64,000 nt of DNA from NCBI GenBank assembly GCA_038896535.1, contig JAWACY010000001.1, forward strand, positions 262,488 to 326,487, given 5' to 3'. The position numbers and the translations under genes are program-made. The first letter of the stretch is position 1; the number at the start of each line of letters is the position of its first letter. Of this stretch, positions 9,007 through 62,491 are shown piece after piece. The notes beneath the pieces were generated by a model. It was not told the origin of the DNA, did no database searches, and worked only from the letters and a program-made list of their open reading frames with translations. This stretch comes from Candidatus Anstonellales archaeon (GTDB taxonomy: Archaea > Micrarchaeota > Micrarchaeia > Anstonellales > J096).

Positions 9007-9010
9007 AATA

Positions 9011-9480: not shown

Positions 9481-9860
9481 TTTAAGCCCCTTTTATTACC
9501 TATTTTTATTATCTATTAACGTTGTTTATAGTTTGTCATTCCTTAACTTATTTAATTAATTTCGTAATCAATTAATTTTTTTGATTAATGCATAACCAGA
9601 TAAAGCATATAATAATAAGCTCATAAAATAATAAAAAATTAGACGATAAAAAAGAGAGTGTTCAATATTTTTTATGTTGCCCATATAATATAAAACTTGA
9701 TAGGCTAAATAAATATTAACTGCCCCTGCTCAAATAATTTATGAAATAATTTAAATAATTTATGAGAATATTTACCATATATGTTATGGCAGTAATGAAA
9801 TTTTTTCTTATTTAATTTCCTTATCGCCTATTTAATTTTATTTGCATGATTTAGATTATG

Positions 9861-13359: not shown

Positions 13360-13414
13360 TATAGCAATTTTGTTATGTTAATTTATTTTTATGTTAATTT
13401 ATTTATGAATTTAT

Positions 13415-15087: not shown

Positions 15088-15092
15088 AATAA

Positions 15093-15449: not shown

Positions 15450-15750
15450 ATTTGAAATGAAATCATTTAATAAAGCAAATGCTGCTTTATTGGCAAGCAT
15501 TTGTTTTTTTCATTATTTACTTGCAATTTTTGTTGCTGCTTTTGGACCAAAAGAATTTAGAAAAATAGCAAGTTTTGGTTTTTTATTTAATATTGTAATT
15601 AATATTGTAGTAATTCAGAATATTGTCATTTTACTTAATAACAGATTTTTAGCATTTATAATTGCTTACCTTATATTTTTACTTTGCTTCGCATGGTTTT
15701 ATTATAAAAACACCATCTTCAATGCTACTGCTTTTATAAATGTTAGTTAA
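15433..15750 (+). CDS. small membrane protein (hypothetical, about 3 TM)
   Basis: 105 aa hydrophobic ORF. Its 3' end overlaps the convergent membrane-protein gene. Confidence 0.3.
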   Translation: MRLVVKFEMKSFNKANAALLASICFFHYLLAIFVAAFGPKEFRKIASFGFLFNIVINIVVIQNIVILLNNRFLAFIIAYLIFLLCFAWFYYKNTIFNATAFINVS

Positions 15751-27499: not shown

Positions 27500-28012
27500 C
27501 TATTTTTCCTTTATTGATATCATGCAAGAGCCTTCTTTATATGTATTATCAACAAAAACCTCCAGTGCATTTTCATAAGATTGAGTAAGTGAACTATTGC
27601 CACCTTTTACTATTATGCTATAGCATCCTGAATCTGATATTAATTTTATACATTCATTTATAGTGGCGTTTAACTCTCTCCCATTGCATGGAAAACTTGT
27701 ACATTTATCTTGTATTATTGCTATACAGTTGTTATTTTCCAATCCATAATAATCGATTCTTTTTTTTGGAAAAGCATTCATTGCAGATTGAAAATATGAA
27801 AGAGCGCAATTTATTGAATTATCATCATTAATTCCATTTTTTTCAATCACTATGCATAAAGGCCTTTTTATGATATTTGTTTGCATTTCCTGTATTGATA
27901 TATTTTTGCCCTTATCTATCACAATGTTTTGTGCGTTCAGAAATAGCGTATGGTATATAAGAAAGATAGCAATAATAAACATAACTAGTGCAATAAGCCA
28001 TTTATTAATCAT
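27500..28012 (-). CDS. Cys-rich secreted/membrane-anchored hypothetical protein
   Basis: 170 aa. N-terminal signal anchor and at least 9 Cys in the mature part. Confidence 0.4.
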   Translation of the reverse strand: MINKWLIALVMFIIAIFLIYHTLFLNAQNIVIDKGKNISIQEMQTNIIKRPLCIVIEKNGINDDNSINCALSYFQSAMNAFPKKRIDYYGLENNNCIAIIQDKCTSFPCNGRELNATINECIKLISDSGCYSIIVKGGNSSLTQSYENALEVFVDNTYKEGSCMISIKEK

Positions 28013-28016
28013 AACA

Positions 28017-33329: not shown

Positions 33330-33515
33330 GTGATTAGACAAAAATATCCCGTGAATAAATTTACCTTAAAAGTAAAGATTGGGTGCGATTATTACCCAGA
33401 CTTTTATAAGAGATGCACTAATATAGCCAAAATAATAAAGGTCAGTGAAAACAGCGAGGGCAAACAGTTAATCCAGAGTGAATTAAAGAAGAAGTTTGAT
33501 ATAAAGGGGTGGTAA
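33330..33515 (+). CDS. small ORF upstream of the MTase (GTG start), possible controller or leader; doubtful
   Basis: 61 aa with a non-ATG start. Ends 2 nt before the MTase ATG. No recognisable HTH. Confidence 0.2.
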   Translation: MIRQKYPVNKFTLKVKIGCDYYPDFYKRCTNIAKIIKVSENSEGKQLIQSELKKKFDIKGW

Positions 33516-33517
33516 AA

Positions 33518-34876
33518 ATGCAAAGTGGTGAAAAATTAAACCGCAGAATCTTTGGAATGCATTTTACCCCAATAGAAATATTTAATGAGTATATATTACC
33601 ACAAATTAAAAGTGTTCTTTATAAGTATACATGGATTGATTTATTTTGTGGAGAAGGTAATTTAATTTTACCTATTTTAAATTTAATTCCTTATCAAGAT
33701 AGACGATTATTTTTTAAGGAGCACATTTTATGCTATGATATAAGCAGTGATGCAGTAAATAAAGCAATTAATACTGCTATTAATTATGGAATACCAGAAG
33801 ATTTAGCAAAGGAAAATATAAAAGTCAGAGACACATTAAAAGACTACCCTGAAATCAATAGCAAATACCCTGTATTTCATATTACAAATCCACCTTATCT
33901 TTATTTAGGTTATATAAGAAAACATAAAGAAGCTTCTAATAAATTAATATATTTTACAGGAATAAATAGAGGTTATCAGGATTTATATCAAATAGCATTA
34001 ATTAATGATTTAAGGCATGGAATAAATAATATGATTTATATAATACCCTCTAACTTTTTATTTTCTGATTCGGGGGCTAATAAGATTAGAAAGGATTTTT
34101 TAAGGCATTATAAAATTAACAGTTGTTATATTTTTGAGAAAAAAATATTTAACTATACTGGAACTAATGTTTTAATAGTAAATTTTGAAAGAACTAATTT
34201 AGTCAATAGTAAGATAGAGTTTAACGCATATAAAATAAACAGCCATATAGAAAAAAAGAAATATGTATTATATGAAATAAATAATTTTAAACCGAACAAT
34301 GAATATTATGATTATATAAAAAATAATTTTAAAAAAGACCATTTGAATGTTAAATTTTATCTTAATTATACGGAATTGGAAGAAAATAAAGGCAGTAATA
34401 AAGTCATACTTTTAAATTCAAAGAATTATAAACATGGGGTATATACAAAAGAAACCTTTTATGTTAATGATGCATTATATAAAAAAATAACCTCAAATCC
34501 TCTATTTGTTAGAACTGTGGATACAGGATCTTTAAATGGTAAGGCTGGATTATATTTAATATATGATGAATTTGGAGCAGATGGTATTTTTGTAAAAGGT
34601 CAAACTTATAGAACAAATCCCATACAGATATTCATAGAACCTGAAATTACAAAAAATGAGAGTTATAAATTAATGAAATTATTTAATAATATTTTAAATA
34701 ATTTAAGAGATAAGACAGGCAGTGATTTTATGACTACATATAGATATGCAGACAACCCAAAGTATATAAGAAAATATTTAGGTCTAAAACAGGTCAAAGA
34801 GATATTAACAACTATAAGTATTAAAGATTTGAGAAATACTCAGGAAGCAATAGAGCCGTCAAAACATTTTTATTAA
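33518..34876 (+). CDS. gamma-class N6-adenine DNA methyltransferase (M.TaqI-like), the M subunit of a type II R-M
   Basis: Motif X HFTP, motif I DLFCGEG and motif IV NPPY, in gamma-class order. SD GGGGTGG 6 nt upstream of the ATG. Confidence 0.8.
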   Translation: MQSGEKLNRRIFGMHFTPIEIFNEYILPQIKSVLYKYTWIDLFCGEGNLILPILNLIPYQDRRLFFKEHILCYDISSDAVNKAINTAINYGIPEDLAKENIKVRDTLKDYPEINSKYPVFHITNPPYLYLGYIRKHKEASNKLIYFTGINRGYQDLYQIALINDLRHGINNMIYIIPSNFLFSDSGANKIRKDFLRHYKINSCYIFEKKIFNYTGTNVLIVNFERTNLVNSKIEFNAYKINSHIEKKKYVLYEINNFKPNNEYYDYIKNNFKKDHLNVKFYLNYTELEENKGSNKVILLNSKNYKHGVYTKETFYVNDALYKKITSNPLFVRTVDTGSLNGKAGLYLIYDEFGADGIFVKGQTYRTNPIQIFIEPEITKNESYKLMKLFNNILNNLRDKTGSDFMTTYRYADNPKYIRKYLGLKQVKEILTTISIKDLRNTQEAIEPSKHFY

Positions 34877-35513
34877 CCGCCTCATTTTTTATTTTTTCTA
34901 AATATGCATTATTTACCCAAGGTATTCCATCAATTATTGCAATTGTGCCTATTTCTGAACTGTCTTTTTTGGCAATATCTAATGCGACATTTAACTGATT
35001 TGTTTGTGTGCCACCGCTATCAGTTATAAATTTTGCCTCACCAAAATAGGTTTTTCCATTTTTCTTAAATACTAAATCTAACCCTTTTTCTATATTGATT
35101 TTAAATTTTTCACTGATATAATTCTTTAAAATTCTATCACTTCCATTTAAAAATTTTAAATCATTACCATTATAATTTTTAAAATCATTAATATCAATAA
35201 AACTATTTTTATATCTTTTTTGTAACCATAACTTAAAGGAATTACTATATTGCCTACTTCCAGATTTTGGTGACCTAATTAATGTTTCTAAATCCTCAAA
35301 ATTCATTCCTAACAATATATCCCCTATAATTTTTACAACATCTAAATTATTTTTGAAAATATTATCGTATCTTAATATTGAAATATAGGGATTATCTATT
35401 GGAAATTTTTCTAAATTTAGGCATGCTTTTACTAATCCAATTGGATCTTTAGCATTGAAATAACTTTTAACATTTTCAATTTGTTCTTGATTAATGTCCC
35501 TAAAACTATTCAT
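34821..35513 (-). CDS. putative type II restriction endonuclease (PD-(D/E)xK fold)
   Basis: 230 aa, convergent with the MTase and overlapping its 3' end. Candidate catalytic motif GLDLVF...GEAKF (D-x_n-E-x-K). Confidence 0.5.
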   Translation of the reverse strand: MNSFRDINQEQIENVKSYFNAKDPIGLVKACLNLEKFPIDNPYISILRYDNIFKNNLDVVKIIGDILLGMNFEDLETLIRSPKSGSRQYSNSFKLWLQKRYKNSFIDINDFKNYNGNDLKFLNGSDRILKNYISEKFKINIEKGLDLVFKKNGKTYFGEAKFITDSGGTQTNQLNVALDIAKKDSSEIGTIAIIDGIPWVNNAYLEKIKNEAVNKNVLTALLLPEYFSNL

Positions 35514-40249: not shown

Positions 40250-40904
40250 AGTCTGGGTTTAAGCACGTTTCACAGCCAGCTTCCAATTTCAATGTTTTTT
40301 GATTACATTTTGGACAGAATTTTAATAAGTCATTTTCTATTTTTTTATTTTCTTCTTGTTGCAATACAATTGTTGGTAAAGGCATTTGTTTTATCTCTTT
40401 TTCTTCCCTTCTCTTTAAAATGCCAATATCATAGAAAAATTGTTCAAGTACATCTGCTATTTCAGCATACATTGATGGAATGTATTTTCCATTTTTGTAA
40501 TAACCGCCATTTGGATCATATATACCTCTCAGCTCTTCGATTATGAATGTTGGGTCTTCGCTCCTTCTAAATATTGCTGATATTAACCTCGTAAGCATTG
40601 CATATTCAGCTGCCTTTGTTAAATCTTTGCTGTTTATGAAAATTTCAAAAGGCCTCCTTTTGCCGTTTTCATCTATGGTATAGCTCAATGATATGTATAT
40701 TGCATAATTAACAAATGATGATTTTAGCTTGTATATTTTTGCATCAAGCATATATGGCCTTTCTTCCTTTTTTGCTTTTATAACCTCTGGCGTTTTTACC
40801 TTTACTAATTCTTTAACAAAAATTTGTTCTTCATCTAGTTCTATCATAATACCACCAATATAAATGCTAACTTGCTTCTTTAAATATGCCATTTTTAATG
40901 CCAT
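40227..40904 (-). CDS. nrdJb: class II ribonucleotide reductase C-terminal module (NrdJb-like) with C-terminal Cys zinc-ribbon tail
   Basis: 225 aa ending CPKCNQKT...CETCLNPDCGYSKCA. Overlaps the upstream NrdJ ORF by 38 nt in another frame. Confidence 0.5.
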   Translation of the reverse strand: MALKMAYLKKQVSIYIGGIMIELDEEQIFVKELVKVKTPEVIKAKKEERPYMLDAKIYKLKSSFVNYAIYISLSYTIDENGKRRPFEIFINSKDLTKAAEYAMLTRLISAIFRRSEDPTFIIEELRGIYDPNGGYYKNGKYIPSMYAEIADVLEQFFYDIGILKRREEKEIKQMPLPTIVLQQEENKKIENDLLKFCPKCNQKTLKLEAGCETCLNPDCGYSKCA

Positions 40905-43377
40905 GATATAAAGTTATCAGTTTTCCAGAAGGCAAAACAAGTATTTCATCACCTTTTACTACATACTCTTTTCCATCAACATTTATCTTAAACTTTTTAT
41001 CTTTAAACTCTTGGAATTCAGTCTTTTTACCGATAGTTGATAATATTGGAAATCTGCTTCCTTCTCTATAAACTGTTATGCCTTTCAACCTCTTTTTCCA
41101 TGCTTGTATATATATTTCAGATATTGTTTCTGGTTCTATTTCCTCTGGCAGATTTACTGTTGAGCTTATGCTATGGTCAATGTATTTTTGTGCCGTGCTT
41201 TGTATTTCGACCCTCTTTATATAATCTATTGTATGGGCTGTTTTAAGCATATAAGAGGGAAGCAATTTTTTCAATTCCTCTTCTGTTGATTCTTGAGCTA
41301 CATCTCCAAGGCCTTTCATGTCTAAATAAGCTTGTACTGTTGAATGGAATATTCTAAATATTTTATTATCAGCTATGCTTTCACTTCTCCTATTATAGTA
41401 TAGAGCAAATATTGGCTCTATGCCCCCGCTTACGCCTATATAATTTTTTCCATTGTATTCAAAGCTTTTTATTGCATTGCTTATAGTGCCAGTCGGTGCT
41501 ATGCTTAATATTGCTATATTTCTAAGCCCGTATTTTTTTATTATCTTCTTTGTTTCTTCAGTAAGTGCTTGTTTGAAAAATGGGTTTTTTGAATATGCGT
41601 CATAGTTAAATATAGGACTTTGCCCCTTTTCATATGCTAATTTAGCTGAGCTTTGGTATGCTATGTTTGCAATTCTTTTCATTATTTCTTCTAATAAGTT
41701 TAATGCTTGTTCAGAATCATAAGCAATGCCCAACTCATTAAACATATCTGCAATGCCCATAACGCCTATGCCTTGCCTTCTTGTGCTTTTTGCTGCTTCT
41801 CTTTGTTTTTCAAGTGGATTTAAGTAAATGTTCCATTCTATTGCGTTATCTATTGCCCTTTGCAAAGTTTCAACAGCCCTTTCGAGTTTTTTCCAATCGA
41901 TTTTTGCTTTTTCAGAATATGGGGAGATAACAAATCTGCTTAAATTAATACTTCCGAGGTTGCATGCCCCGCCATCTTCTAAAGGCACTTCTGCGCAAGG
42001 GTTAGTGCATATTATAGGATTGCCAACATAATCACTAGGGCTATATTCTTTCATTACATCCCAGAAAATAATGCCAGGCTCTGCTGTTTTATAATTTCCT
42101 TCAATGATCATGTTCCATATTTTTCTTGCTTTGACAAGCCTTTTTATGATTCCGCATTCATTGCTAGAGAAAAATAATAGAAAGTCTCCTGCCTGTCTTA
42201 TTGCAAAATCAAATTCAAAGTTTGTCTCTATTATATAATCGCCATAAATATCTCTTTTGTATGCATCTTTTAGTTCATTTTCATTTATGCTATATCCGTA
42301 ATCAGATAAGAATTCATTGATTTCCTGTATTGTTTTTGCTTGGAATATAAGCTCATAATTGTTAATATTTTTGCTCGGCATTTTATCGCTATAATGTAAT
42401 TTACCATCCTGCTTCATATCCATGATCTTTCCTTTTTCATATTTTTTATATACCAAGTATGCATTTCCATAATTATTTTGCTCCACAACTGCATTCATGA
42501 ATTCATCAGTAATTTTTATACTAATGTTAGCAAACCTAACTTGTGTGTTCTCAACAACTATTGTTTTTATCTTTTCAAGTAAATCTTTTTGTATGTCAGT
42601 TGTCCATGATATCTGATTTATTATCTGGTTTGATACCCAATTTGGTTCATGCTTGACTTTTATGAATCTCTCTATGTCGGGATGTTTAACATGTATTGTG
42701 AGCATCAATGCCCCTCTTCTCCCGCTTTGTCCTATAAGTCCTGTTGTTAAGCTGTATAGCTCCATAAAACTTACTGCCCCAGTGCTTTTGTCAGCAGCAT
42801 TATGCACTATGCTATCAGCAGGCCTTAATGGTGTTATGTCAATGCCTATTCCGCCGCCATAGCTATAAGTCCTTGCTGCTTCATAAGCTGCTTTGTATAT
42901 GCTTTCTATATTATCCTCTTCAATTGCAGTAACAAAGCAGTTTGCCAATGTCTTTAATCTATATAGATCGCCTGCCCCGGCTATTATTCTCCCTCCAGGA
43001 AGCCACAAGCCATCAAAAAGTTCAATATAAAATCTCTCAGCCCATGCCATTGCTTTCTCCTCATCTTCAACTGCAGCAAGAAAAGCGGCTAATCTTATAA
43101 AAACGTCTTCTGGCCTCTTTTCTATGATATTTTCTTCAAGGTCTTTTAGGAAGTATTTTTTCTTATATATATTAATAGCAAGTTCATTATTTCCCAAATA
43201 ATCTGGATGAGAGGGCAGCATATTGCTCATTAATTTCTCTCTTAAATAAACATAAAGTTTTTTATACATCTCAAGGAATTTTTGTGGCACTTTATCATGG
43301 AGTTTTCCCTTATAAGAAAACATATGCTCTATTTCATCTGGCAAAATCTTTTCATTAATCTTCAATGCTTGTTCCAT
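40867..43377 (-). CDS. nrdJ: adenosylcobalamin-dependent (class II) ribonucleotide reductase catalytic chain
   Basis: 836 aa. RNR ten-stranded barrel motifs (…NCFV…, …SYGGGIGIDITPLRP…, …TNPCAEVPL…). Confidence 0.85.
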   Translation of the reverse strand: MEQALKINEKILPDEIEHMFSYKGKLHDKVPQKFLEMYKKLYVYLREKLMSNMLPSHPDYLGNNELAINIYKKKYFLKDLEENIIEKRPEDVFIRLAAFLAAVEDEEKAMAWAERFYIELFDGLWLPGGRIIAGAGDLYRLKTLANCFVTAIEEDNIESIYKAAYEAARTYSYGGGIGIDITPLRPADSIVHNAADKSTGAVSFMELYSLTTGLIGQSGRRGALMLTIHVKHPDIERFIKVKHEPNWVSNQIINQISWTTDIQKDLLEKIKTIVVENTQVRFANISIKITDEFMNAVVEQNNYGNAYLVYKKYEKGKIMDMKQDGKLHYSDKMPSKNINNYELIFQAKTIQEINEFLSDYGYSINENELKDAYKRDIYGDYIIETNFEFDFAIRQAGDFLLFFSSNECGIIKRLVKARKIWNMIIEGNYKTAEPGIIFWDVMKEYSPSDYVGNPIICTNPCAEVPLEDGGACNLGSINLSRFVISPYSEKAKIDWKKLERAVETLQRAIDNAIEWNIYLNPLEKQREAAKSTRRQGIGVMGIADMFNELGIAYDSEQALNLLEEIMKRIANIAYQSSAKLAYEKGQSPIFNYDAYSKNPFFKQALTEETKKIIKKYGLRNIAILSIAPTGTISNAIKSFEYNGKNYIGVSGGIEPIFALYYNRRSESIADNKIFRIFHSTVQAYLDMKGLGDVAQESTEEELKKLLPSYMLKTAHTIDYIKRVEIQSTAQKYIDHSISSTVNLPEEIEPETISEIYIQAWKKRLKGITVYREGSRFPILSTIGKKTEFQEFKDKKFKINVDGKEYVVKGDEILVLPSGKLITLYHGIKNGIFKEAS

Positions 43378-43470: not shown

Positions 43471-43974
43471 TCAATTTAATCTGTTTAATCTCGCTATTAT
43501 AGAGCCCTGAATTGAAAAGCCGTCATTATTGCAGTTATTTTCTATGCAAGGGCTATAATAAATTATGATTTTCATTGATACAATATCCCTTGCACTTATG
43601 TTCAATTTTCCAGTTTTTGATATTAAAAATGGGCTATCTGCTTCTATTAAACCATTATTGTTTATCTCATTATTATTTATTATTAAATAACCGCCCTCAT
43701 GGAATATTGTTATATTTGTTATATTTATCTTATGCCCAAAGTTATTAGTCAAATTTATAATAATATTTTCTTCTATGCCAGAGCCAGTCTTTTTTGCTGA
43801 TACAAAAAATCCATTGCATATAACCTGCTTTGGGAATATACACTGCTCTGGTATTGTTGGGGAAAATGATGTTGAATAAAATGCCAATATTGCGATAATA
43901 ATCACTAAAGCTGCAATTGCCCATCCATATGTCATTAAATATTCAACTGCTGCTTGGCCCATTCTTTTTTGCAT
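43471..43974 (-). CDS. archaeal type IV pilin-like protein (class III signal peptide)
   Basis: MQKRMG|QAAVEYLMTYGWAIAALVIIIAIL is a prepilin-peptidase-type signal (charged N-terminus, cleavage after G, then a hydrophobic stretch), followed by a beta-rich domain. Confidence 0.7.
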   Translation of the reverse strand: MQKRMGQAAVEYLMTYGWAIAALVIIIAILAFYSTSFSPTIPEQCIFPKQVICNGFFVSAKKTGSGIEENIIINLTNNFGHKINITNITIFHEGGYLIINNNEINNNGLIEADSPFLISKTGKLNISARDIVSMKIIIYYSPCIENNCNNDGFSIQGSIIARLNRLN

Positions 43975-44022
43975 AATGAAATATTAGCATTGTTTTTTAA
44001 TTATTTACTTACAAATAAATTA

Positions 44023-44919
44023 ATGAATGCGATCTTAATGAGATATGAAGAGCTAAGCAGGAAACAAAAAGAGGATGTTGTTGCTCTATATAATAGAAAA
44101 TGGGCTTCAAGGGAAGTATTAAAAAAAGCTCAAAGTAAAACACAAACATTTGGCGAGAAAGCATTATCTGAAATGCTAGGCATAAAATTACTTGAAAAGA
44201 ATGTGCAATATTTTGATGAGCGCTCTTTGTATTTTCCTGAAGGCCAGCTTGTTGCTGTGGAAAATGGGGAAATAAAAGCTGCTTTAACAACAATTCCATC
44301 TATACTTGATATAGCATCATTGCTTGAGAAGCAAGAAAATGCATATAATAGATTGCATGAATATGAAAATATCTATGACTTTAGGAATGATCTTAATAAA
44401 GAGAGAGTAATATATTGCATATCAATAATAGGGGAAGATGCTTATGCTAAAATGTTACTTAATGAAATAAGGAATATTGGCTTAAATATTGGTTTTTTTG
44501 TAATGCCATTTAGTGCACCAAGAAGTTTAAGATTTTATTTTGACAGAAAACCAGAAGAATGGGAAGTGAAAAAATACTTATATACAACAAGAAAAATGAA
44601 CGAGCAAGAATTTTATAAATGGCAACAAATAAAAAAAGCACTAATAGAAAAGCTTTATCATAAATTTATAAAGAAACCGGATAACATATTTTTGACTTCT
44701 GAATTTTTTAAATGGTTTTATGACTCATATGGAAAAGAGCCAACATTAAGGGATGTTATGATTTATTTTGATGAGAGACCAATTGACTTTACATTAGCTT
44801 TTCATATGATGAAAGGAGCAAATTTGTTTTATTTCAATGGCCGGCCAGTTATATTAAAAAATTCAAGGCCAGAAGATGTTATGGCGCACGGCTATAACAT
44901 GTTGCTTATATATGATTAA
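44023..44919 (+). CDS. hypothetical protein
   Basis: About 300 aa ORF. Start placed at MNAILMRYEEL, because the longer ORF-track start would overlap the divergent pilin start. No confident motif. Confidence 0.4.
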   Translation: MNAILMRYEELSRKQKEDVVALYNRKWASREVLKKAQSKTQTFGEKALSEMLGIKLLEKNVQYFDERSLYFPEGQLVAVENGEIKAALTTIPSILDIASLLEKQENAYNRLHEYENIYDFRNDLNKERVIYCISIIGEDAYAKMLLNEIRNIGLNIGFFVMPFSAPRSLRFYFDRKPEEWEVKKYLYTTRKMNEQEFYKWQQIKKALIEKLYHKFIKKPDNIFLTSEFFKWFYDSYGKEPTLRDVMIYFDERPIDFTLAFHMMKGANLFYFNGRPVILKNSRPEDVMAHGYNMLLIYD

Positions 44920-44921
44920 AA

Positions 44922-44994
44922 TGGGAGAGCCCGGATTTGAACCGGGATCACAAGCTCCCAAAGCTCGCAGGCTACCAGATTACCCCACTCTCCC
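44922..44994 (-). tRNA. tRNA-Pro(TGG)
   Basis: Acceptor GGGAGAG/CTCTCCC. Anticodon stem CGAGC/GCTTG with loop TTTGGGA. T-arm CCCGGTTCAAATCCGGG. Confidence 0.8.
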
Positions 44995-45112
44995 TTTTAC
45001 TTTTTAATTTATCAATACATTTTTTATATTATAATGCTTTTGTTTTTAATTTAATATAACTGCAATAGCATTTTCAATAACATTTTTAAAATCTACTTAT
45101 ATAAATATTAAT

Positions 45113-45826
45113 ATGAAAGACTATGAAGCGCAAAATAAATTTTATAATGAGAAAGTTCTGAGTAAATTTACTTCTTTGTTAGTGCAGCATTACAATATGG
45201 ATGAAAAAGAAGCTAGCATAAGATCTGAAAAGCTGTTTAAGTTATTTAGCGATTGGGCTGGAGCAAATTGCATTGGGCTTAGTTTTTTTATTTCAATATC
45301 ATATCACCAAAGACAAATTATAATAGCGCATTTTGTTGATGAGAAAATAAATATAAAAGAAGAAGAAAAATCAAAATTCATCCATTTTATGTTAGAATCC
45401 TTGAGCTTTTTGAACAGTAAAGAGAAATCAATGCTTAGCAATGAAGAAGTTAAAAAAGGAGGAAATAAAAATCATTTAATTGATGATGCCAAGCAATTTT
45501 ATTCTATATTGAAAACAAGATTAAGTGATGAAGAGGCAAAAGCAATAACAGATGAGTTGGAAGCTTGGACAAAAAGAATAGGCATAAAAATTGACTGGCT
45601 TGTAAGAAGGCCCATAAATGAAATAAGGACATTTATTAATGCATTTATGAATAATTCTTATCCGTTCGGCATAAAAGATGCAAGGGATAGAGAAGAATAT
45701 TATGAAGTAATAATACATGCAATAAGCAACATGAAAAAAGAATTGCTAAGTGAAGTAAATAAAGTAATAAGAACAGAAGGTAATAATGAAAAAGGAACAG
45801 TTGAAAAGGAACAGTTGAAGAGATAA
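45113..45826 (+). CDS. hypothetical protein
   Basis: 237 aa. 3' end contains short tandem duplications (EKGTVEKEQLK). Confidence 0.4.
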   Translation: MKDYEAQNKFYNEKVLSKFTSLLVQHYNMDEKEASIRSEKLFKLFSDWAGANCIGLSFFISISYHQRQIIIAHFVDEKINIKEEEKSKFIHFMLESLSFLNSKEKSMLSNEEVKKGGNKNHLIDDAKQFYSILKTRLSDEEAKAITDELEAWTKRIGIKIDWLVRRPINEIRTFINAFMNNSYPFGIKDARDREEYYEVIIHAISNMKKELLSEVNKVIRTEGNNEKGTVEKEQLKR

Positions 45827-46078
45827 AGAAATTAAAGAGATAAAGAAATTAGATATATGGGGTTAAATATATTGGTTAATATTGTTTGGCATAAAACATA
45901 GAGAGCATAAGGGCATGTTGCTATGTTGTGAGACAATTATCTGCAAAAGAGAAAATTAAATAAAAAATAAAAATGAGAATAAAAAGGGATGATAAATAAT
46001 AAAGGCAAATGAAGCCCATATTTTTATCTTTTTTTGTCTTAATCTTATCTTATCTGTTTTAATCTTATTTACTCTTAT

Positions 46079-46603
46079 TTACTCAGTAGTCTGTGTTACT
46101 GGCTTCAATGATAACTTACTTTCATAACTTTTTATTAAAGCAAATCCGGCATCAAAGTCCAGTGTGCAAAGAACCAATTTAACGTTTCCTCTGCTGGTTT
46201 CTATTACTAATGCTTGGCCAACCTTTATCTCTGTTTTCACTGGAGGTAAGCCAGACTCATTGTCATAAACAAATGCTGTTATATGCTCTTTCTTTGTTGA
46301 AAAATCTTCATTGCTCATACCAAGTTTCAATTGTGCATCATTATTGAGATTTGTTTCATAAAATCCAGGTATTTTGAATGCAACCATATTCTTTTCAGAT
46401 AAATCAACAACCTTTTCTTCTCCTTTTTGATATACAATTACAGGGCATTCGTTCTTAGCATTTTGAATATCTAACCTTGGCCCGCATGTGTAAACAAGAG
46501 CTAATAATGGCAAAAGTAAATTAAATCTCTTTCCATTATTCTCACTAGTTTTACTTTTATTATCTTGCTTAACAATATCAAAGTTTAATCTGCTTATTTT
46601 CAT
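46079..46603 (-). CDS. hypothetical secreted protein
   Basis: 174 aa with an internal hydrophobic signal-like segment LLLPLLALVYTC. Confidence 0.4.
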   Translation of the reverse strand: MKISRLNFDIVKQDNKSKTSENNGKRFNLLLPLLALVYTCGPRLDIQNAKNECPVIVYQKGEEKVVDLSEKNMVAFKIPGFYETNLNNDAQLKLGMSNEDFSTKKEHITAFVYDNESGLPPVKTEIKVGQALVIETSRGNVKLVLCTLDFDAGFALIKSYESKLSLKPVTQTTE

Positions 46604-46613
46604 TATTCCACCT

Positions 46614-48410
46614 CTATTCAGTTATTCTAGCATATAATCTTATTCTATCTATTCCTATAGCCCCATTTTGATTTGATGTGCTGAATTCAACATAATCAAC
46701 TTGTGATTGGAAAGGCAAGCCATTTGCAATGCCAGGAGTTAATAATACTTCTTCTCCAAGAACAGCGAAAACTCCTGATTTGCCTTCTGGATCTTGTCTT
46801 GTCCTTGCATCTAGTAATGCTATTCTTATTTGCTTGCCAAAAACATCAATATCTGCTGGCATAGAATCAACGCTAAACCAGACAGCAGGGCTTATCATTC
46901 CATTTCTTTCAAATGTGGCTTTAACCCATGTGTCGTTATTGTAATGTAAAACATCTTCAACCCTAACTACGATGTCTTCATATACAAATGGCTGTGATTC
47001 TGTTGCAATTGATACTGCCTTTAATTCATAAAACCTTGCTGATAAAGATGCTTGTGATGTTGTATCAACACTGTATAACATATAATCTTTTCCAAATAGC
47101 CTATAAGTAAATGCTGCTGATTTTAGCAATATATTTACTTGCTCATCTCTTTTATTTATTGCCGATATTGTATTTGTCAATGGTTGATTAAATTGTATAT
47201 CGACATAAGCAACATCAGATACAGGGCTTACTTTGACAAAGCTCAAGCTTGGAGAAAATGCATTATAATAGTAAGTATTGCCAATATACTTAGGGAACCA
47301 AGTAAATGAATTATTGTATTGCTCAATCATCATTCCAGCACTGTTTTGTAGTGTCAATGAATCTCTATTGAATATAACTCCATCATTTACACTAAGAACA
47401 GTTGCGCAATAAATGAACTCATTATAAAGTCTGGTAAAGCACTCTCTGCTGCCCTCTTCTAATCTTGAGTATGTCCTCTGCAATGTTTCTGATAAAAGTT
47501 CTAATGTTGCTGCTGAATAATATGTTGTCGATACTTCTGAAACCCTTAATGCATATGGGCTTTGTCCTATTATGTCACTAACAACATACCACCTGCCTTG
47601 ATAAACAGATTGCTGTGATAAAGGATCATAAACCTTTGTTGTTTGAGTTATTGCTGATGCTGGATCTGCAAAAGAAAGCTCTATTGCTAATGGGTTGTAT
47701 GGAGCAACAAATACTGCAAAGTATTGCCTAGTATTGCATCCATACAATGAAAAGAAATCATTTAATGGCGTTGTTTGAGAAATATCAGAGTATTTAAGTA
47801 TTGGCATGCCCCTTGGGTTTATGTCTTCAAATGTTAAATCGCATCCATCAACGTTTATGCTTGAATCCAAATTTACTGTCGTTGTATTTACTAATGAATA
47901 GCCACCAGATGAGCTTCCAGATGAACTTCCTCCTGAAGAGCTTCCTGAAGAACTGCCAGAAGAACTGCCAGAAGAGCTGCCAGAAGAGCTGCCAGATGAA
48001 GAGCTGCTAGATGAGCCACCAGATGAGCTTCCAGATGAACTTCCTGAGGAACTGCTTGAAGAACTCCCCCCTGAAGAGCTGCTAGATGCGCCTCCAGATG
48101 AGCTTGAGCTTCCGGAACCAGAAGAAGATTGGCCTGGTTGTCCATTATCAACTAATAATAATTTTTCTGCATTATTTTGTGGTTGTAATTCTTTTCTTCC
48201 ACAAGAGCTTGTAAGCGTTAGAAAACCAAGAAAAGCCCCTAAAGCTAAACCCTTAGCCCATTTTTTTATTCCATTATTTTTGCCATTTCCTTTATCATGT
48301 TTAAAAGAAGCGCTAAAGCCCCTATTTTCACTATTGCCCCTATCTTCACTATTTTCTATATTGTCACTAAATAATAAATTTGATTTATTTGTTTTATTTT
48401 TAAAAACCAT
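46614..48410 (-). CDS. large cell-surface protein with Ser/Gly-rich linker
   Basis: 598 aa. N-terminal TM anchor, about 100 aa of (S/G)n low-complexity linker, and a large beta-rich C-terminal domain. Confidence 0.5.
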   Translation of the reverse strand: MVFKNKTNKSNLLFSDNIENSEDRGNSENRGFSASFKHDKGNGKNNGIKKWAKGLALGAFLGFLTLTSSCGRKELQPQNNAEKLLLVDNGQPGQSSSGSGSSSSSGGASSSSSGGSSSSSSSGSSSGSSSGGSSSSSSSGSSSGSSSGSSSGSSSGSSSGGSSSGSSSGGYSLVNTTTVNLDSSINVDGCDLTFEDINPRGMPILKYSDISQTTPLNDFFSLYGCNTRQYFAVFVAPYNPLAIELSFADPASAITQTTKVYDPLSQQSVYQGRWYVVSDIIGQSPYALRVSEVSTTYYSAATLELLSETLQRTYSRLEEGSRECFTRLYNEFIYCATVLSVNDGVIFNRDSLTLQNSAGMMIEQYNNSFTWFPKYIGNTYYYNAFSPSLSFVKVSPVSDVAYVDIQFNQPLTNTISAINKRDEQVNILLKSAAFTYRLFGKDYMLYSVDTTSQASLSARFYELKAVSIATESQPFVYEDIVVRVEDVLHYNNDTWVKATFERNGMISPAVWFSVDSMPADIDVFGKQIRIALLDARTRQDPEGKSGVFAVLGEEVLLTPGIANGLPFQSQVDYVEFSTSNQNGAIGIDRIRLYARITE

Positions 48411-48506
48411 GTTATTATTTATGGATGGAAATATTTAAAAATGTTTGTGTTATTAAAGTTGGATTAAAAGATACCTTTTTAAAATTATCGTTATAACAAT
48501 ATTTTC

Positions 48507-50147
48507 ATGAATGGCTCAAAACTATTGTTTATCAAAACAATTTTATTAGTGATAGCAATTGTAAATATAGGGTTTAGCACAGTTATAATAAATTTTGTTC
48601 AACCAACTCCGACGAATGATAATTTAAATAATATACCAACAGTGAATGTAAGTGCAACAACAGATAACGGGGCAATAAGTGTAATAGAAGCTTATGTTAA
48701 TGATGTGCTTGTAAAGAGATGTTTGAATACAAATACATGCTATGTTTTGCCTGATGAAACTGGGGTTAATATAACAAGCACTGGTTTTATTAATTATAAA
48801 TTTACCGCCATAACAACAGCAGCAGAGAGTAAAACAATAAGCAAATCATTCTTTATAGATAAAGTGGCCCCAGATATAAAGTTTAGTTTCCCAACCCCAA
48901 ATGAAAATGCAGTAGTTAATGGGACAATAACAATAAATGCAGAAGGAAAAGACAATAGTGCGGGCACAGGCATTGCGAATGTATCCATATTTATTGATGG
49001 TAATTTATTGACTCAATGCATTAATAATGATCCTTTTGCTCCACCCTCATTAGCTTGCAATGTAACAATAAATACTGCACAATATAATGATGGTAATCAT
49101 ACAATAAATGTTATTGCATATGACGTTGTAGGTAATACTGGGACAAAAACAAGAATAATTAATTTTGATAATAATCTGCCATTTATTACATTTTCTCCAC
49201 CAACTCCATCAAATAATTCTGCATTCAGTATTGGAGCTATTTTAGTCATAAATGCAACATCAACATCACAAGATTTGAGGAGCATCGATATTTTTATAGA
49301 CAATAATCTTGTGTATTCATGCAATGCCATTATTTGCGCTTATTCTTGGAACACTACAAGTTTTGCTGCAGGGCAACACAGCTTTTATGCAAGCGCAACA
49401 GATAATTATGGAAATGTTAATAATACTGAAACTAGGTTTATAACACTTTCTCAATCAACTGGAGGAACTGGAGGAGGCGGTGGAAGCAGTGGAGGAAGCA
49501 TTGGAAGTGGAAATAATAATGGAGAGAGCGGCATAATGCTTATAGTAACAAACAAATTATGCCCAGAAAATAAGATACAATTCAAAGTAAAAGACATAAA
49601 TGGCACTAGCATAGCAAATGCTGAGATAAGAGTAACTAAAAAAGGCTCAGTAATTCCAGATACATTCCTTACAGATAATAATGGCATTGCTTATTATACA
49701 ATAAAAGAAAATGCAACATATTCAGTAAGTGTAAATGCAAATGGTTATAGCAGCAAAACCTTTGAGCTGAGCATTTCATTATGCAGTTTAGAAGAGAAAA
49801 ATGAGACAATAGGGGAATTTTTGAATGCAACAGTCAATAAAAGCATAAATGAAAGCACGAATGAGAGCAAAAATGAGAGTAAGGAAAATACATCGGAGAA
49901 TAAGCTAGAAGGAAAAAATGAAACAAATAGCAATACTAATGTTGGCATTAAAGAAAATTTATCAGAAGTCAGGAATGAAACGAACAATGAAGAGAATAAA
50001 GAAAGAATAAGCAGTAATGCTGGTAATAACATTGGCTTTAACTTTTCTGGAGTAGTAGATACAATAAAGACATTAGCATTGTTTGCAGTGCCAATTGCAG
50101 TTTTGTTTGTTGCAAGAGCTTTGTTCAGAAGGTTTATAATGCCCTGA
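48507..50147 (+). CDS. cell-surface glycoprotein-like protein with Ig-like repeats and C-terminal TM anchor
   Basis: 546 aa. Signal anchor, repeated about 100-aa segments dense in N-x-T/S sequons, a G-rich linker, N/E/S/K-rich stalk and a C-terminal TM plus RRF tail. Confidence 0.5.
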   Translation: MNGSKLLFIKTILLVIAIVNIGFSTVIINFVQPTPTNDNLNNIPTVNVSATTDNGAISVIEAYVNDVLVKRCLNTNTCYVLPDETGVNITSTGFINYKFTAITTAAESKTISKSFFIDKVAPDIKFSFPTPNENAVVNGTITINAEGKDNSAGTGIANVSIFIDGNLLTQCINNDPFAPPSLACNVTINTAQYNDGNHTINVIAYDVVGNTGTKTRIINFDNNLPFITFSPPTPSNNSAFSIGAILVINATSTSQDLRSIDIFIDNNLVYSCNAIICAYSWNTTSFAAGQHSFYASATDNYGNVNNTETRFITLSQSTGGTGGGGGSSGGSIGSGNNNGESGIMLIVTNKLCPENKIQFKVKDINGTSIANAEIRVTKKGSVIPDTFLTDNNGIAYYTIKENATYSVSVNANGYSSKTFELSISLCSLEEKNETIGEFLNATVNKSINESTNESKNESKENTSENKLEGKNETNSNTNVGIKENLSEVRNETNNEENKERISSNAGNNIGFNFSGVVDTIKTLALFAVPIAVLFVARALFRRFIMP

Positions 50148-51279
50148 CAATTTCTCTAATGTCATCAGCTCTTTTATCTAAATATGAAATACATTCTTTT
50201 ATTTTTTTATCGTGTTTTTTTGTGAACGCCCCATTATTTATAATGTTTTGATTATTTATTGATACTTGTTTTATATTCTTTTTATTTCCATTATATATTA
50301 AATTATTGTAAGGGTCATAAAATGGCACATTATTTATTGACAGTTCAAAAATGACATTAGCGTTTGCATTGCATGTAGCAGAATAAAAAAGTTCTTTTAA
50401 ATCTGGTAATGAAGCATCCCAATACCTATGTTTTTGTAATAATGCAGCAAGCTTTAATTCATTAAACATATCAAGTGCATTATTGCTAGCCACAGAATCT
50501 GTGCCTATGGCAATGTTAGCATTATATTTCTGAAATTCATGCAATGGGCATATGCCGCCAGTAGCGAGTTTTAAATTACTTGTAGGGCAATGCACAATCA
50601 ATGCCTTTTTTTCAGCAAGCAATTTTATCTCTCTTAATGTTACCCATGAAGCATGAGCCAAAACAGTATTGCTATCTATAACGCCCAAGTCAAGTAAAAA
50701 TTCAGCAGGCCTTTTTTTGAATTTTTGTAATGAATATACAAGCTCTTCTCTTGTTTCTGCTAAATGTATGTGCAATAATGTGCTATGTTCTTTTGCGATT
50801 TCATAAGCTTCTTTGATAAGCTCTTTATCTGCTTTATATATTGAATGCAATGCTATGCATGGTTTTACATGCTTATATTTTTTATTCAAAAATGTTTTTG
50901 CTTTTTTTAAGTCATTTGATAGGGCAACATCATAGCAAACATAACCATTTATCCCTACATCTTCTGCTGCTTTTGCTATTTGCTCAACATGTTTCCAATA
51001 CATATCGTTAAAAAGCACTACCCCGCTCTCTATCATTTCATAAAAACCAATTAAAGAGCTGTAATAAATGTCCCTTTCATTAAGCTGCTCTTCAATAGGC
51101 CAAACAATATTTTTAAGCCAGTCATGTAAGTTTAGGTTTTCAGCTATCCCTCTAAGCAATGTCATGGCAACATGAGTATGAGCATTATAAAAACCTGGAA
51201 ATAATAAAATTCTATCATCTTTAGCATTATTGCTTTTTCTTTTTACCCAATCCTTTTTTTCTCTTATATAGACAAGCAT
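50134..51279 (-). CDS. amidohydrolase-family deaminase (MtaD/SAH-MTA deaminase-like)
   Basis: FYNAHTHVAMTLLRG metal-binding HxH motif and conserved downstream His/Asp. 381 aa. Confidence 0.75.
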   Translation of the reverse strand: MLVYIREKKDWVKRKSNNAKDDRILLFPGFYNAHTHVAMTLLRGIAENLNLHDWLKNIVWPIEEQLNERDIYYSSLIGFYEMIESGVVLFNDMYWKHVEQIAKAAEDVGINGYVCYDVALSNDLKKAKTFLNKKYKHVKPCIALHSIYKADKELIKEAYEIAKEHSTLLHIHLAETREELVYSLQKFKKRPAEFLLDLGVIDSNTVLAHASWVTLREIKLLAEKKALIVHCPTSNLKLATGGICPLHEFQKYNANIAIGTDSVASNNALDMFNELKLAALLQKHRYWDASLPDLKELFYSATCNANANVIFELSINNVPFYDPYNNLIYNGNKKNIKQVSINNQNIINNGAFTKKHDKKIKECISYLDKRADDIREIVRAL

Positions 51280-51327: not shown

Positions 51328-51582
51328 TTATATTTGCTCTGGTAAATCTATATCGCTGCTATTATTTGCTATAACATCTGGGCTTGGCACTTCTTCTATT
51401 GGCACTTCTTCTATTTGCTGTTGTATTGATATATTTTCAGGCAACTCTATGGCACTATTATTGTCTATAACAACTTCAGGATTTGGCAGAACTTCTTGTT
51501 GCATAGGCTTGAAAAATAGCAATGCAAACAATGCAATTAATGCCAATGCCCCTATTATAGCAATAATTAATTTCGTATCCAT
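51328..51582 (-). CDS. small membrane-anchored acidic protein with two internal repeats
   Basis: 84 aa. N-terminal TM, then repeats PEVVIDNNSAIELPE and PDVIANNSSDIDLPE. Confidence 0.35.
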   Translation of the reverse strand: MDTKLIIAIIGALALIALFALLFFKPMQQEVLPNPEVVIDNNSAIELPENISIQQQIEEVPIEEVPSPDVIANNSSDIDLPEQI

Positions 51583-51599
51583 TTGCTCACTCTTATAGC

Positions 51600-52412
51600 C
51601 TATTCATTAGATTCATTTTTCTCTTTTTCTGATTCATTTGCCTTCTCTCTTGTTTCTTTTCTTATCTCTATTATATCTTTCCTTATTTCCTTCAATTCTT
51701 TTACTATTTCATTTGGCTCTTTTTGTTCTGCTGTATTTATCACTGATTCGATCCTTGATATTATCTCTGCTTTGCCTGGAAACTCTGGTCTTGCTTGTAA
51801 TCTCTCTAAATAAAGGGCTGCAACATGTTTTAATGCAAGTCTTGCATGTATTTTTGCCCCCTCTCTTACAGCGTCTTTAACTTCGCCATAAACTGCTCTG
51901 AGCTCTTCTAAAGATGATGCTGCTTCGACTCTTGCCTTTAATGCCTCTAATTTATTTATCTCTTCTTCGCTTGCATTAACACTCTGTAATCTCTCTTCAA
52001 GCTTTGATATTGCTGTTAAAACAAGCTCCTTTGTTCTATTTAAATACATGCTGCAGTTCCCTTGTTTTTCACAAAGCCCCTTTGCTTCTTTCCATTTTTC
52101 TTTTACCTCCTCATACTTCTCTTTTGTCTCTTTTAATTTATCTATGACTCTTAAAACCTGCATGCCTTTTATGGATTTTGCCCATTCTGCCCTTACTTGG
52201 CCAGATTTTTCTATTGTTTTTGCTTGCTCGCTGATATTTTTCCCTAATGCAATATTACTTGCACTTTTGCTCTCATTCGTGCTCTTATTAACTGCCTCAT
52301 TGCTCGTTGGTGTTTTCACTACTTCATTCATGCCTGCATTTTCTGCTGCATTTGCAAAAACAAAACCAAGCAAAAGCAATGCAGCAAAAAATGAAAAAAT
52401 TGCCTTTTTCAT
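51600..52412 (-). CDS. secreted alpha-helical/coiled-coil hypothetical protein
   Basis: 270 aa. Sec signal (…FVFANA|AEN), then K/E-rich predicted helices. Confidence 0.4.
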   Translation of the reverse strand: MKKAIFSFFAALLLLGFVFANAAENAGMNEVVKTPTSNEAVNKSTNESKSASNIALGKNISEQAKTIEKSGQVRAEWAKSIKGMQVLRVIDKLKETKEKYEEVKEKWKEAKGLCEKQGNCSMYLNRTKELVLTAISKLEERLQSVNASEEEINKLEALKARVEAASSLEELRAVYGEVKDAVREGAKIHARLALKHVAALYLERLQARPEFPGKAEIISRIESVINTAEQKEPNEIVKELKEIRKDIIEIRKETREKANESEKEKNESNE

Positions 52413-53826: not shown

Positions 53827-54942
53827 TTATTTCATACCAGATATTAAGACTTCCCTTACATTGTGAATGTGCCAATTTATTCTAGTTTTTCTTATCTTCC
53901 CTATCGTTATTTTTATATTTTTAAACCCTAAATCAGCCATAATATTAGCTATATCATTATCTATTTCAATACTCATGTTATGAATAAGTGCATTGCTAAC
54001 ATTATAGTAAATTTTACCACCTTTTTTTAATACCCTGTAAGCTTCATTAAAGAATTCTTTTGTTGCTTTAAGATAGGCATTAACAATCATTTCCTTATGC
54101 TCACCATAACTTCCTTTACCAGATAAAAACGATGGAAAAAGGGCCTTTCTAAGCTTTTTTGATGCATACTTATCTAATGTTAAAACAGCAAGTTCAATGC
54201 TATAAATTTTTGAATAATCGACGTTGTTTATATATGGCGGGGAAGTTATTATAGTAGAAAACATGTCATTATTGAATGGCATATCTCTTGCATCGCCCAG
54301 ATATGGCTTTGCTTTATAACATATTTTTCCAAGCTTTTCCTTTTCAGCTGTTATTTTCAAATCTTTTATCATTTTCTTTGCTTGCATTCTGTAAGCTTTA
54401 TAAAAATCTGCAACATTTTTTCTTTTATCAATCTTTAATACCCCTCCATCTTTTCTTATGTATGTTATAATAGGCAGTATTGATATCAAGCATAACAGAG
54501 CAAGTGCTTTTGCCTTTTCTAAATATTCTATTGCTTTTCTTGCTCTAAAAAAAGGCCTTATATTTCTTAAAGGCATTATGTCATAGAAACTAAAAAGCTC
54601 TGAATCAACATATAGCTCATCTTTAAAATTTTTTAATTCATTTATAAAATGCTCAAATTCATCTATTTCTTCAATTTCATGTTTTGATGTTTTTGTTTTT
54701 GTAATGAAATATGACAGCTCACTTATGTCAAGGCCATAACTATCTATGCAGCGTTCATTACAAGCGAGTAATGTTGTGCCAGAGCCCATAAATGGGTCTA
54801 ACACTGGCTCTTTTATTTCTATAAAATCAAAAAGCCTTGGGGAAAAGCCCTCTTTATAATAAAACCACCTATGAACAGGCATGTTTTTTGCTTCTTCAAA
54901 AGAAAAGTATTTGCCAATTTCAAAATTATTTTCTATAAGCAT
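53827..54942 (-). CDS. N4/N6 DNA methyltransferase (PF01555-like, alpha-class motif order)
   Basis: Motif I DPFMGSGTT near the N-terminus and motif IV TSPPY about 170 aa later. Confidence 0.7.
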   Translation of the reverse strand: MLIENNFEIGKYFSFEEAKNMPVHRWFYYKEGFSPRLFDFIEIKEPVLDPFMGSGTTLLACNERCIDSYGLDISELSYFITKTKTSKHEIEEIDEFEHFINELKNFKDELYVDSELFSFYDIMPLRNIRPFFRARKAIEYLEKAKALALLCLISILPIITYIRKDGGVLKIDKRKNVADFYKAYRMQAKKMIKDLKITAEKEKLGKICYKAKPYLGDARDMPFNNDMFSTIITSPPYINNVDYSKIYSIELAVLTLDKYASKKLRKALFPSFLSGKGSYGEHKEMIVNAYLKATKEFFNEAYRVLKKGGKIYYNVSNALIHNMSIEIDNDIANIMADLGFKNIKITIGKIRKTRINWHIHNVREVLISGMK

Positions 54943-62401: not shown

Positions 62402-62491
62402 TGGGGCCGCCGAGATTTTCAGGCTTATACCTTTTGAACTCGGATCACAGGCACCCCAAGCCTGCAGGCTTCCAGGTTACCCCACGGCCCC
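62402..62491 (-). tRNA. tRNA-Pro(GGG) with a putative 17-nt intron in the T-loop
   Basis: Acceptor GGGGCCG/CGGCCCC. Anticodon stem CAGGC/GCCTG with loop TTGGGGT. T-stem CCGAG/CTCGG enclosing TTCAAA[AGGTATAAGCCTGAAAA]T. Confidence 0.6.

Follow-up and report, generated by a model that had tools for sequence, protein, structure and literature searches.

The 64,000-nt stretch of Candidatus Anstonellales archaeon contig JAWACY010000001.1 analysed here (hereafter the window) contains an interval, at positions 43471-50147, which encodes a type IV pilin-like protein (gene A), two hypothetical proteins (B and C), a tRNA-Pro and three exported proteins (D, E and F). A sequence-only reading had taken the interval for a single surface-structure locus of accessory character. 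The features it described were all found where it had placed them, but the interval probably represents two separate cell-surface units on an ordinary Micrarchaeota chromosome, namely a lone pilin gene and an envelope trio consisting of F and the divergently oriented pair E-D. The evidence favours the view that these two independent units lie approximately 2 kb apart by happenstance. Among the 79 loci examined around pilin relatives, none was found to contain homologues of D, E or F within 10 kb of the pilin gene, and the trio itself recurs on a second contig with its order and orientation preserved.

The product of gene A begins with MQKRMGQAAVEYLMTYGWAIAALVIIIAILAFY and carries the class III signal MQKRMG/QAAVEYL (the slash marks the predicted cleavage site), the sole instance of this motif in the window. 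The signal, MQKRMG/QAAVEYLMTYGWAIAALVIIIAILAFY, consists of a short basic leader with Gly at position -1, Gln at +1 and Glu at +5, and is accompanied by a hydrophobic window at residues 8-42. The homologues of this protein (n = 34) are about 160 amino acids long, and those bearing an organism name belong to Micrarchaeota. Over 23 aligned homologues the block GQAAVEYLMTYGWAI is essentially invariant, the invariant residues of the family alignment being G6, Q7, A9, E11, Y12, L13, M14, T15, Y16, G17, W18, A19 and I20; two Cys pairs are conserved as well. The scan of one genome per species led to at least 459 confirmed occurrences of the family, and most of the listed loci come from metagenome-assembled genomes of DPANN archaea (Micrarchaeota, Woesearchaeota, Aenigmatarchaeota and Nanoarchaeota).

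The AlphaFold2 model of the pilin, based on the same 23-sequence alignment, has a mean predicted local distance difference test score (pLDDT) of 89.2 and shows a helix at residues 6-36 followed by eight strands forming a beta-sandwich. The Foldseek search against the PDB ranked the Aap pilus of S. acidocaldarius (8q30) second (E-value 3.8e-4, probability 0.99), albeit with a low TM-score, and the remaining top matches were generic beta-sandwiches. With archaeal type IV pilins such as that of the Aap pilus, or those with the Methanococcus EppA-type QxSxExxxL motif, the protein shares the basic leader ending with Gly, the Gln at +1 and Glu at +5, the hydrophobic N-terminal helix of about 30 residues and the C-terminal beta-sandwich. 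It differs from them in that it matches no Pfam or NCBIfam pilin model and its GQAAVEYLMTYGWAI block is found mainly in DPANN archaea, while the gene itself lies apart from assembly genes and adjoins that of a ribonucleotide reductase (RNR). Hence, gene A encodes a genuine, yet divergent, archaeal type IV pilin-like protein which can be placed in no Pfam pilin family. The family alignment, the model and the Aap match together uphold the earlier identification of a pilin with a class III signal. In the proposed picture, a prepilin peptidase would cut the preprotein after Gly6, the hydrophobic N-terminal helix would pack into the core of a filament and the disulfide-stabilised beta-sandwich would make up its surface. 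The assembly would depend on an ATPase and a platform protein whose genes lie in other parts of the genome.

The neighbourhoods of the pilin relatives are consistent with such a role. In 15 of the 79 loci an open reading frame (ORF) with the Walker A motif GGTGSGKTS is located 3.5-5.6 kb upstream on the same strand. Both of those tested, from loci L026 and L033, proved to be Pfam T2SSE proteins (E-values 7.5e-40 and 5.2e-38, respectively), and L026 additionally carries a T2SSF protein (8.9e-16). The presence of T2SSE and T2SSF beside pilin relatives indicates that this pilin family serves a type IV pilus machinery. The assembly ATPase, a search for which had been proposed along with the original description, was thus found beside relatives in other genomes; the window ORFs scanned with Pfam yielded no such machinery. 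Most full-length orthologues of the pilin, however, are orphans, and gene A is a conserved, core-like gene. It is found in a housekeeping neighbourhood, and the machinery, if any, would be encoded elsewhere. A class I aminoacyl-tRNA synthetase of about 780 amino acids is a convergent neighbour in six of the nine loci with full-length orthologues; this unexplained pairing was seen in L004, L010, L013, L014, L030 and L034, with the pilin gene at approximately 10001 or 4245. In the window the pilin gene adjoins RNR instead, and L043, L071 and L078 likewise have RNR near their pilin relatives. L004, which contains the closest orthologue of the pilin, has a homologue of B some 0.9 kb upstream of it (25% identity, E-value 1e-18). 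The tRNA-Pro was looked for beside pilin orthologues and was absent.

One of these loci deserves separate mention. L026 (positions 617-10510) derives from a 1.57-Mb Micrarchaeota chromosome, and its pilin relative closes an operon which starts with a protein of at least 1311 amino acids and continues with the T2SSE ATPase, a 571-aa ORF and the T2SSF protein. The large protein, whose gene overlaps the start of the ATPase gene, contains a beta-helix, Big_13/Ig-like domains, a Gly run and a CarboxypepD_reg domain, with 95 sequons in the open frame. Its Ig region shares 30% amino acid sequence identity with F over 144 residues (pairwise E-value 0.004). Nevertheless, a large sequon-rich protein upstream of the ATPase was present in only one of the 13 ATPase loci examined, L026 itself, and a general link between F-type glycoproteins and pilus operons was discarded on these grounds. 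A tblastn search of F against all loci returned nothing at an E-value of 0.05.

Protein F (58.5 kDa, acidic, with an isoelectric point (pI) of about 5) is built in the way usual for type I surface glycoproteins of archaea and is, judging by its sequence, a candidate member of this class. It comprises an N-terminal signal or transmembrane (TM) segment (residues 3-33), three Big_7-type Ig-like repeats of about 90 residues with one Cys pair each (approximately 28-118, 122-220 and 225-313), a Gly hinge (317-339), a CarboxypepD_reg-like domain (approximately 343-425), a stalk rich in Asn, Glu and Ser with NES and NET sequons (430-512) and a C-terminal hydrophobic segment (515-545) ending with an RR tail. 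The match to Pfam Big_7 (PF17957) covers two stretches with an E-value of 4.4e-17 and a score of 62.9 bits against a cutoff of 24.1, and the third repeat was recognized by internal alignment (27% identity, E-value 4.8e-8). The CarboxypepD_reg model (PF13620) aligns to residues 360-420 with 28.8 bits, which is below its cutoff of 32.3 (E-value 1.6e-6). There are 24 N-X-S/T sequons in F versus 14.2 ± 3.2 in shuffles of its own composition (P=0.0045). The window is 100% identical to a Candidatus Anstonellales metagenome-assembled genome at NCBI, and the pilin, C, D, F and both flanking enzymes have identical counterparts among its proteins (MEM4296287-MEM4296294 cover this region). They are labelled 'hypothetical' or, in the case of F, 'Ig-like domain-containing protein'. 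Exact look-ups of E and of the thermosome found no record.

In its signal, repeats, hinge, sequon-bearing stalk, C-terminal TM segment and basic tail, F resembles known archaeal Ig-like surface glycoproteins with Big_7 and CarboxypepD_reg domains, but it differs from them in being divergently paired with an E-D operon and in lacking the PGF-CTERM signal: neither a PGF motif, which would point to an archaeosortase, at the C-terminus nor a match to any NCBIfam sorting-signal model was detected. NCBIfam S-layer models gave no match to F either, and PDB sequence searches with D and F produced noise or linker matches only. The sequence-only view of F as an Ig-like, sequon-dense protein with a G-rich hinge and a C-terminal anchor was thus confirmed. 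In the window, a glycosylation or lipid-type gene cluster located at 12769-17109 may be a source of glycans for F. It comprises a CDP-alcohol phosphatidyltransferase (12769-13359), a GT2 glycosyltransferase (13415-14083), an FkbM methyltransferase (14065-15087) and a 476-aa protein with about nine TM segments and no family match (15679-17109); a ManC-type GDP-mannose enzyme is encoded at 24872-26233.

Protein E (64.5 kDa, pI 4.99) is of a different kind. Its N-terminus consists of a polar tail of about 50 amino acids followed by KKWAKGLALGAFLGFLTLTSSC, with a hydrophobic region (h-region) and the lipobox-like LTLTSSC, in which the Cys is residue 70. The Ser/Gly tether further downstream measures 76 residues (55 Ser, 20 Gly and one Ala), not the roughly 100 previously estimated, and is coded by imperfect 12-nt and 24-nt tandem repeats. 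The remainder is a beta-rich ectodomain of 428 amino acids. Only five sequons are present in E versus 8.5 expected, and so, as far as N-sequons are concerned, the designation of the two larger proteins as glycoprotein-like holds for F but not for E; both are mid-sized rather than very large. D, whose gene starts 10 bp past the E stop codon, is laid out similarly, with a polar tail, an h-region and then Cys40 in LVYTC, as well as a conserved Cys53/Cys146 pair. No match to either protein was found in Pfam, NCBIfam or PHROGs. These features support the export or anchoring of E, with the Ser/Gly run as a flexible tether. In common with lipobox lipoproteins (PROSITE PS51257-type), basic residues, a short h-region and [LT][ST][SGA]C are seen in E, in its homologue from contig L083 and in the D homologue from contig L084 (both described below); E and D differ from them in that the Cys is situated 40-70 residues in, behind a long polar tail. 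The window also encodes a DsbA/thioredoxin-like protein (11725-12720, minus strand) with the canonical lipobox MQKYFFVSTILLLVILAGC (LAGC) and a C-terminal hydrophobic segment. Its presence indicates that this archaeon encodes lipobox proteins and can form disulfides outside the cytoplasm, in line with the Cys pairs conserved in the pilin, D and F.

The homology of E was assessed by an exhaustive phmmer search of 1.84 billion cluster representatives. The full-length query was swamped by the Ser/Gly run (three matches covering 1-3% of the query), and the ectodomain was used instead. Only two relatives were recovered, P0038 (37% identity, E-value 3e-45) and P0039 (23%, 2e-10). The E-family profile search of a 5.8-billion-protein set returned only a member of the query alignment, and no relatives of E were found in two metagenome scans and one viral-contig scan. 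E and D therefore constitute a rare, extremely lineage-restricted family of tethered surface proteins of putative lipobox type, the most conserved N-terminal feature of which is the Cys after the h-region.

Despite this rarity, the arrangement of the trio is conserved, as seen on the contigs to which both relatives could be assigned. L083, a 2.9-kb JGI metagenome contig (Ga0137716_10074462, 32% GC content), keeps the F/E-D order and orientation, with the F homologue (44% identity over residues 7-234, E-value 1e-50) divergent from the E homologue (36%, 1e-49), which is followed by that of D (36%, 9e-6). The E homologue of L083 has the same polar tail as E, KKALPFFLLGALSLLSAGC, the canonical lipobox LLSAGC and a Ser/Gly run of its own. 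A more distant E-like gene (22% identity, E-value 5e-17) followed by a D-like gene (30%, 2.4e-5) with the lipobox AGVAAC is found on L084, a 2.3-kb contig. The fact that F, E and D are kept together at 36-44% identity argues for a conserved module and not for chance adjacency. In addition, the N-terminal fragment of P0039 ends in a way resembling the end of an Ig repeat of F (local score 37, equalled or exceeded in 1.4% of 1000 shuffles), which is weak evidence.

TATA-like boxes stand back-to-back in the region shared by E and F: TTTTAAATAT at 48431-48440 (-30 to -21 from the ATG of E) and TTTTAAAA at 48477-48484 (-30 to -23 from the ATG of F). Together with the divergent arrangement, which is conserved in L083, these predicted promoters suggest leaderless divergent transcription. 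In the model proposed for the trio, F would be transcribed from this shared 96-bp region away from an E-D operon, exported and held in the membrane by its C-terminal helix, with the CarboxypepD_reg-like domain, the Gly hinge and the three Ig-like domains, the latter N-glycosylated, pointing away from the cell. Export would likewise apply to E and D, which would probably receive a lipid at the Cys behind their h-region, and the 76 flexible residues of the tether, which may span up to about 25 nm, would keep an S-layer-like (DUF1608-like) ectodomain of E off the membrane. The most likely joint role of D, E and F would be as components of the protein envelope, or of the contact surface, of cells of this lineage.

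Structure prediction, recommended earlier for the beta-rich domains, gave a model of E that is poor overall. The model, built from a three-sequence alignment, is all-beta with a pLDDT of 70-90 over its last ~200 residues. The sole significant Foldseek match was the DUF1608 domain of the Methanosarcina acetivorans S-layer protein MA0829 (3u2g, E-value 4.6e-4), and the E profile search against the PDB does not recover 3u2g. The structural matches of E are at the single-domain level only. A role as a fusogen (class II fusion protein or fusexin) is not supported, as E has no C-terminal anchor.

Several observations weigh against the interpretation put forward here. Regarding the pilin, none of the curated models (Pfam PF04021 Class_IIIsignal and PF07790 Pilin_N, and the NCBIfam pilin/flagellin N-terminal models) matched it, even though the Pfam search was opened to an E-value of 10, and the pilin profile search against the PDB reached 8q30 with an E-value of only 4.2. 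No prepilin peptidase (A24), assembly ATPase or platform protein is present among the 50 window ORFs scanned with Pfam. With respect to lipidation, the PROSITE-type pattern used, {DERK}(6)-[LIVMFWSTAG](2)-[LIVMFYSTAGCQ]-[AGS]-C, expects the Cys within about 35 residues of the start. E fits it (FLGFLTLTSSC), yet with its Cys at 70, past an unusually long tail; D, with Thr at -1, fails the strict pattern, as does the L083 homologue of D (LPSC); and two cytoplasmic enzymes of the window are picked up too. The overall pLDDT of the E model is only 58, its TM-scores to the DUF1608 domain are low (0.18/0.25), and neither the ectodomain nor its two homologues match the Pfam/NCBIfam DUF1608 and TIGR01567 models. 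Finally, the synteny of the module is known from two short contigs only. In L083 the E homologue is split by a frameshift (1351-1417) between tether and ectodomain, reflecting either a sequencing error or a pseudogene, while L084 has a GC content of 46% and was binned as 'Bdellovibrio sp.' (GCA_003694355.1), which may be a case of mis-binning or may point to transfer.

If the interval were a unit, along the lines originally proposed, a single locus for a surface structure or for attachment would comprise the pilin, the tRNA and the surface proteins, and E and F would be adhesins associated with the pilus and working with the pilin. All exported proteins do lie within 6.7 kb, and the large Ig/CarboxypepD_reg protein that overlaps the pilus ATPase gene in L026 is weakly similar to F. 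However, the interval is divided into four or more transcription units, which are distributed over the two strands, and a tRNA and two genes for cytoplasmic proteins separate the pilin from the surface proteins. The L026 arrangement is a single case among the 13 ATPase loci examined, and none of the 79 pilin loci was found to hold D, E or F. L083 contains F, E and D as a unit, although this contig is too short to reveal a nearby pilin. A single locus of this type is hence quite unlikely. It is highly improbable that C, D, E and F, the genes past the tRNA-Pro, are a horizontally acquired island or an integrated element. A tRNA gene does stand at the edge, the E/D family is nearly missing from the databases, and the distant E-D pair of L084 comes from a contig of very different GC content in a bacterial bin. 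Nevertheless, no integrase, transposase or phage-family match was obtained for any gene of the interval in Pfam, NCBIfam or PHROGs, the ectodomain relatives were not found in viral contigs, no att-like partial repeat of the tRNA-Pro bounds the region, and the flanking genes are of the housekeeping type. The GC content of the interval genes (0.29-0.36) is within the range of the window (0.24-0.40, mean 0.316); the highest value, 0.362 in E, is explained by the Ser/Gly codon repeats. The term 'lineage-restricted' is justified for E and D, whereas 'accessory island' is not, and an accessory nature is not supported for the pilin either, which is widespread in Micrarchaeota and often next to the synthetase gene.

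As for the trio itself, it appears unlikely that E is the main S-layer protein with D and/or F as its membrane stalk or anchor, in the manner of SlaA/SlaB. The DUF1608-like fold signal, the low pI and beta-rich ectodomain of E and a divergent, probably strong TATA-containing promoter, as predicted from the sequence, would be in line with this possibility. Furthermore, a DUF1608-related (TIGR01567) domain is part of SLP_Mh, the known S-layer protein of Micrarchaeota (bioRxiv 10.1101/2021.04.28.441871). However, SLP_Mh is a heavily glycosylated protein of about 101 kDa with homologues in 38 of the 49 Micrarchaeota genomes examined (same source), whereas E is smaller and sequon-poor, has an N-terminal lipobox-like anchor and a Ser/Gly tether in contrast to both SLP_Mh and MA0829 (3u2g/3u2h), matches no TIGR01564, TIGR01567 or DUF1608 model and has just two homologues anywhere, unlike a phylum-wide S-layer protein. 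Because E is smaller, almost unique and without a model match, it is counted among S-layer-like or accessory envelope proteins rather than taken for the S-layer protein itself. A purely metabolic function of E and D, as ordinary lipoproteins outside the cytoplasm that bind or hydrolyse a substrate, for example, with F as an unrelated neighbour, seems quite improbable as well. No adhesion domain was detected in E or D, and lipobox-like anchors with tethers are typical of archaeal and Gram-positive solute-binding proteins. On the other hand, there is no transporter or enzyme domain in or beside E-D and no solute-binding fold among the structural matches, the divergent pairing with F is conserved at the identities given above, and the end of an Ig-like repeat is possibly fused upstream of the E-like domain in P0039. 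The separation into a lone pilin gene and an envelope trio thus accounts best for the interval, the features of which are summarized in Table 1.

Table 1. Features of the interval 43471-50147 and of its flanks.
Feature	Position	Strand	Remarks
Class II-type RNR, one flank	40867-43377		Pfam
A, pilin-like ORF	43471-43974	-	167 aa
B, hypothetical	44038-44919	+	293 aa; alternative starts 44023 and 43954
tRNA-Pro(TGG)	44922-44994	-	73 nt; ARAGORN and Rfam RF00005, 60.4 bits
C, hypothetical	45113-45826	+	237 aa
D, putative small exported/anchored partner of E	46079-46603	-	174 aa
E, surface protein	46614-48410	-	598 aa
E Ser/Gly low-complexity tether, residues 95-170	47901-48128	-	
E/F divergent intergenic region	48411-48506	n/a	96 bp; read from sequence
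F, type I surface glycoprotein candidate	48507-50147	+	546 aa
Amidohydrolase, other flank	50134-51279		Pfam

B and C are cytoplasmic proteins standing outside any surface structure. B, which is divergent from the pilin, lacks both TM segments and sequons; in other assemblies its gene was called with a length of either 293 or 298 amino acids. Its L004 homologue matches Acetyltransf_CG below threshold (E-value 3.4e-5), and B is possibly GNAT-like. C is Lys/Glu-rich and without TM segments, and sequons are almost missing from the two proteins. Neither gave a significant match in Pfam, NCBIfam, PHROGs or PDB sequence searches. The only other tRNA-Pro match in the window is a tRNA-Pro(GGG) near 62.4 kb, about 17 kb away (62402-62491, minus strand). 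Its identity with tRNA-Pro(TGG) is 83%, its T-loop region is interrupted by 17 additional nucleotides, AGGTATAAGCCTGAAAA, and it is missed by Rfam and by ARAGORN, in intron mode too. Once these nucleotides are removed in silico, ARAGORN recognizes a canonical tRNA-Pro(GGG) of 73 nt, and the insertion is probably a non-canonical tRNA intron.

Fast evolution was also suggested for this region. Assemblies of the same population from other samples, the DNA of which is 99.98-100% identical and the protein fragments of which are identical, give no sign of variability between strains. The source samples come from hot springs (SRR27730028, GCA_038891655.1 and GCA_038896675.1). Contig ends of these assemblies are scattered across the region, and the Logan assembly stops at 47929, within the Ser/Gly repeat of E, which is an assembly hazard. 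Hypervariability as the cause of the contig breaks was rejected, since the fragments are 100% identical and some breaks fall inside the housekeeping RNR gene.

Elsewhere in the window, A-type ATPase subunits, thermosome, aIF2-alpha, LonB, ribosomal proteins and RNA polymerase subunits are encoded, which marks the organism as an archaeon. Genes for surface proteins are dispersed over this part of the chromosome, beyond the interval considered here. Just past the amidohydrolase gene (51328-52412, minus strand), a secreted Glu/Lys-rich helical protein of 270 amino acids, with eight sequons versus 1.7 expected (a number reached in none of 2000 shuffles), is accompanied by an 84-aa N-terminally anchored protein. 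A further pair of candidate surface glycoproteins is encoded at 27500-30059 (minus strand): a 680-aa protein that starts with a signal, carries two hydrophobic segments in its C-terminal part and has 20 sequons versus 9.6 expected (P=0.001), and a 170-aa N-terminally anchored protein just downstream, both without a family match. A restriction-modification pair was also noted, consisting of an N6 DNA methylase (33509-34876, plus strand) and a Tsp45I-type restriction enzyme (34821-35513, minus strand), as well as a second DNA methylase at 53827-54942.

DPANN archaea depend on physical contact with their hosts, and the proteins that mediate it are largely unknown. Attachment to a host by surface proteins such as those described here, which was among the original suggestions, is plausible. 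The suggestion of a pilus-adhesin island can be removed, and a routine core pilin gene is now set apart from a compact and very rare three-gene surface module. The conserved F/E-D module is the new point of this analysis; the rest belongs to known kinds of archaeal surface proteins and would hardly surprise a specialist. A structural homology of DUF1608 beta-sandwiches with the envelope proteins of viruses has been published (PMC5744192). It is very doubtful, though conceivable, that F/E-D is an undescribed envelope module of a narrow DPANN lineage forming a surface for host contact or membrane apposition, in which a lipid-anchored E with an S-layer/viral-envelope-like (DUF1608/class II-like) ectodomain on its long tether would act together with the small lipoprotein D and the F stalk. 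If this were true, machinery of this kind might lie behind the bridges seen between DPANN cells and those of their hosts. In any case, F/E-D provides a defined set of proteins of Anstonellales as candidates for an envelope or contact role.

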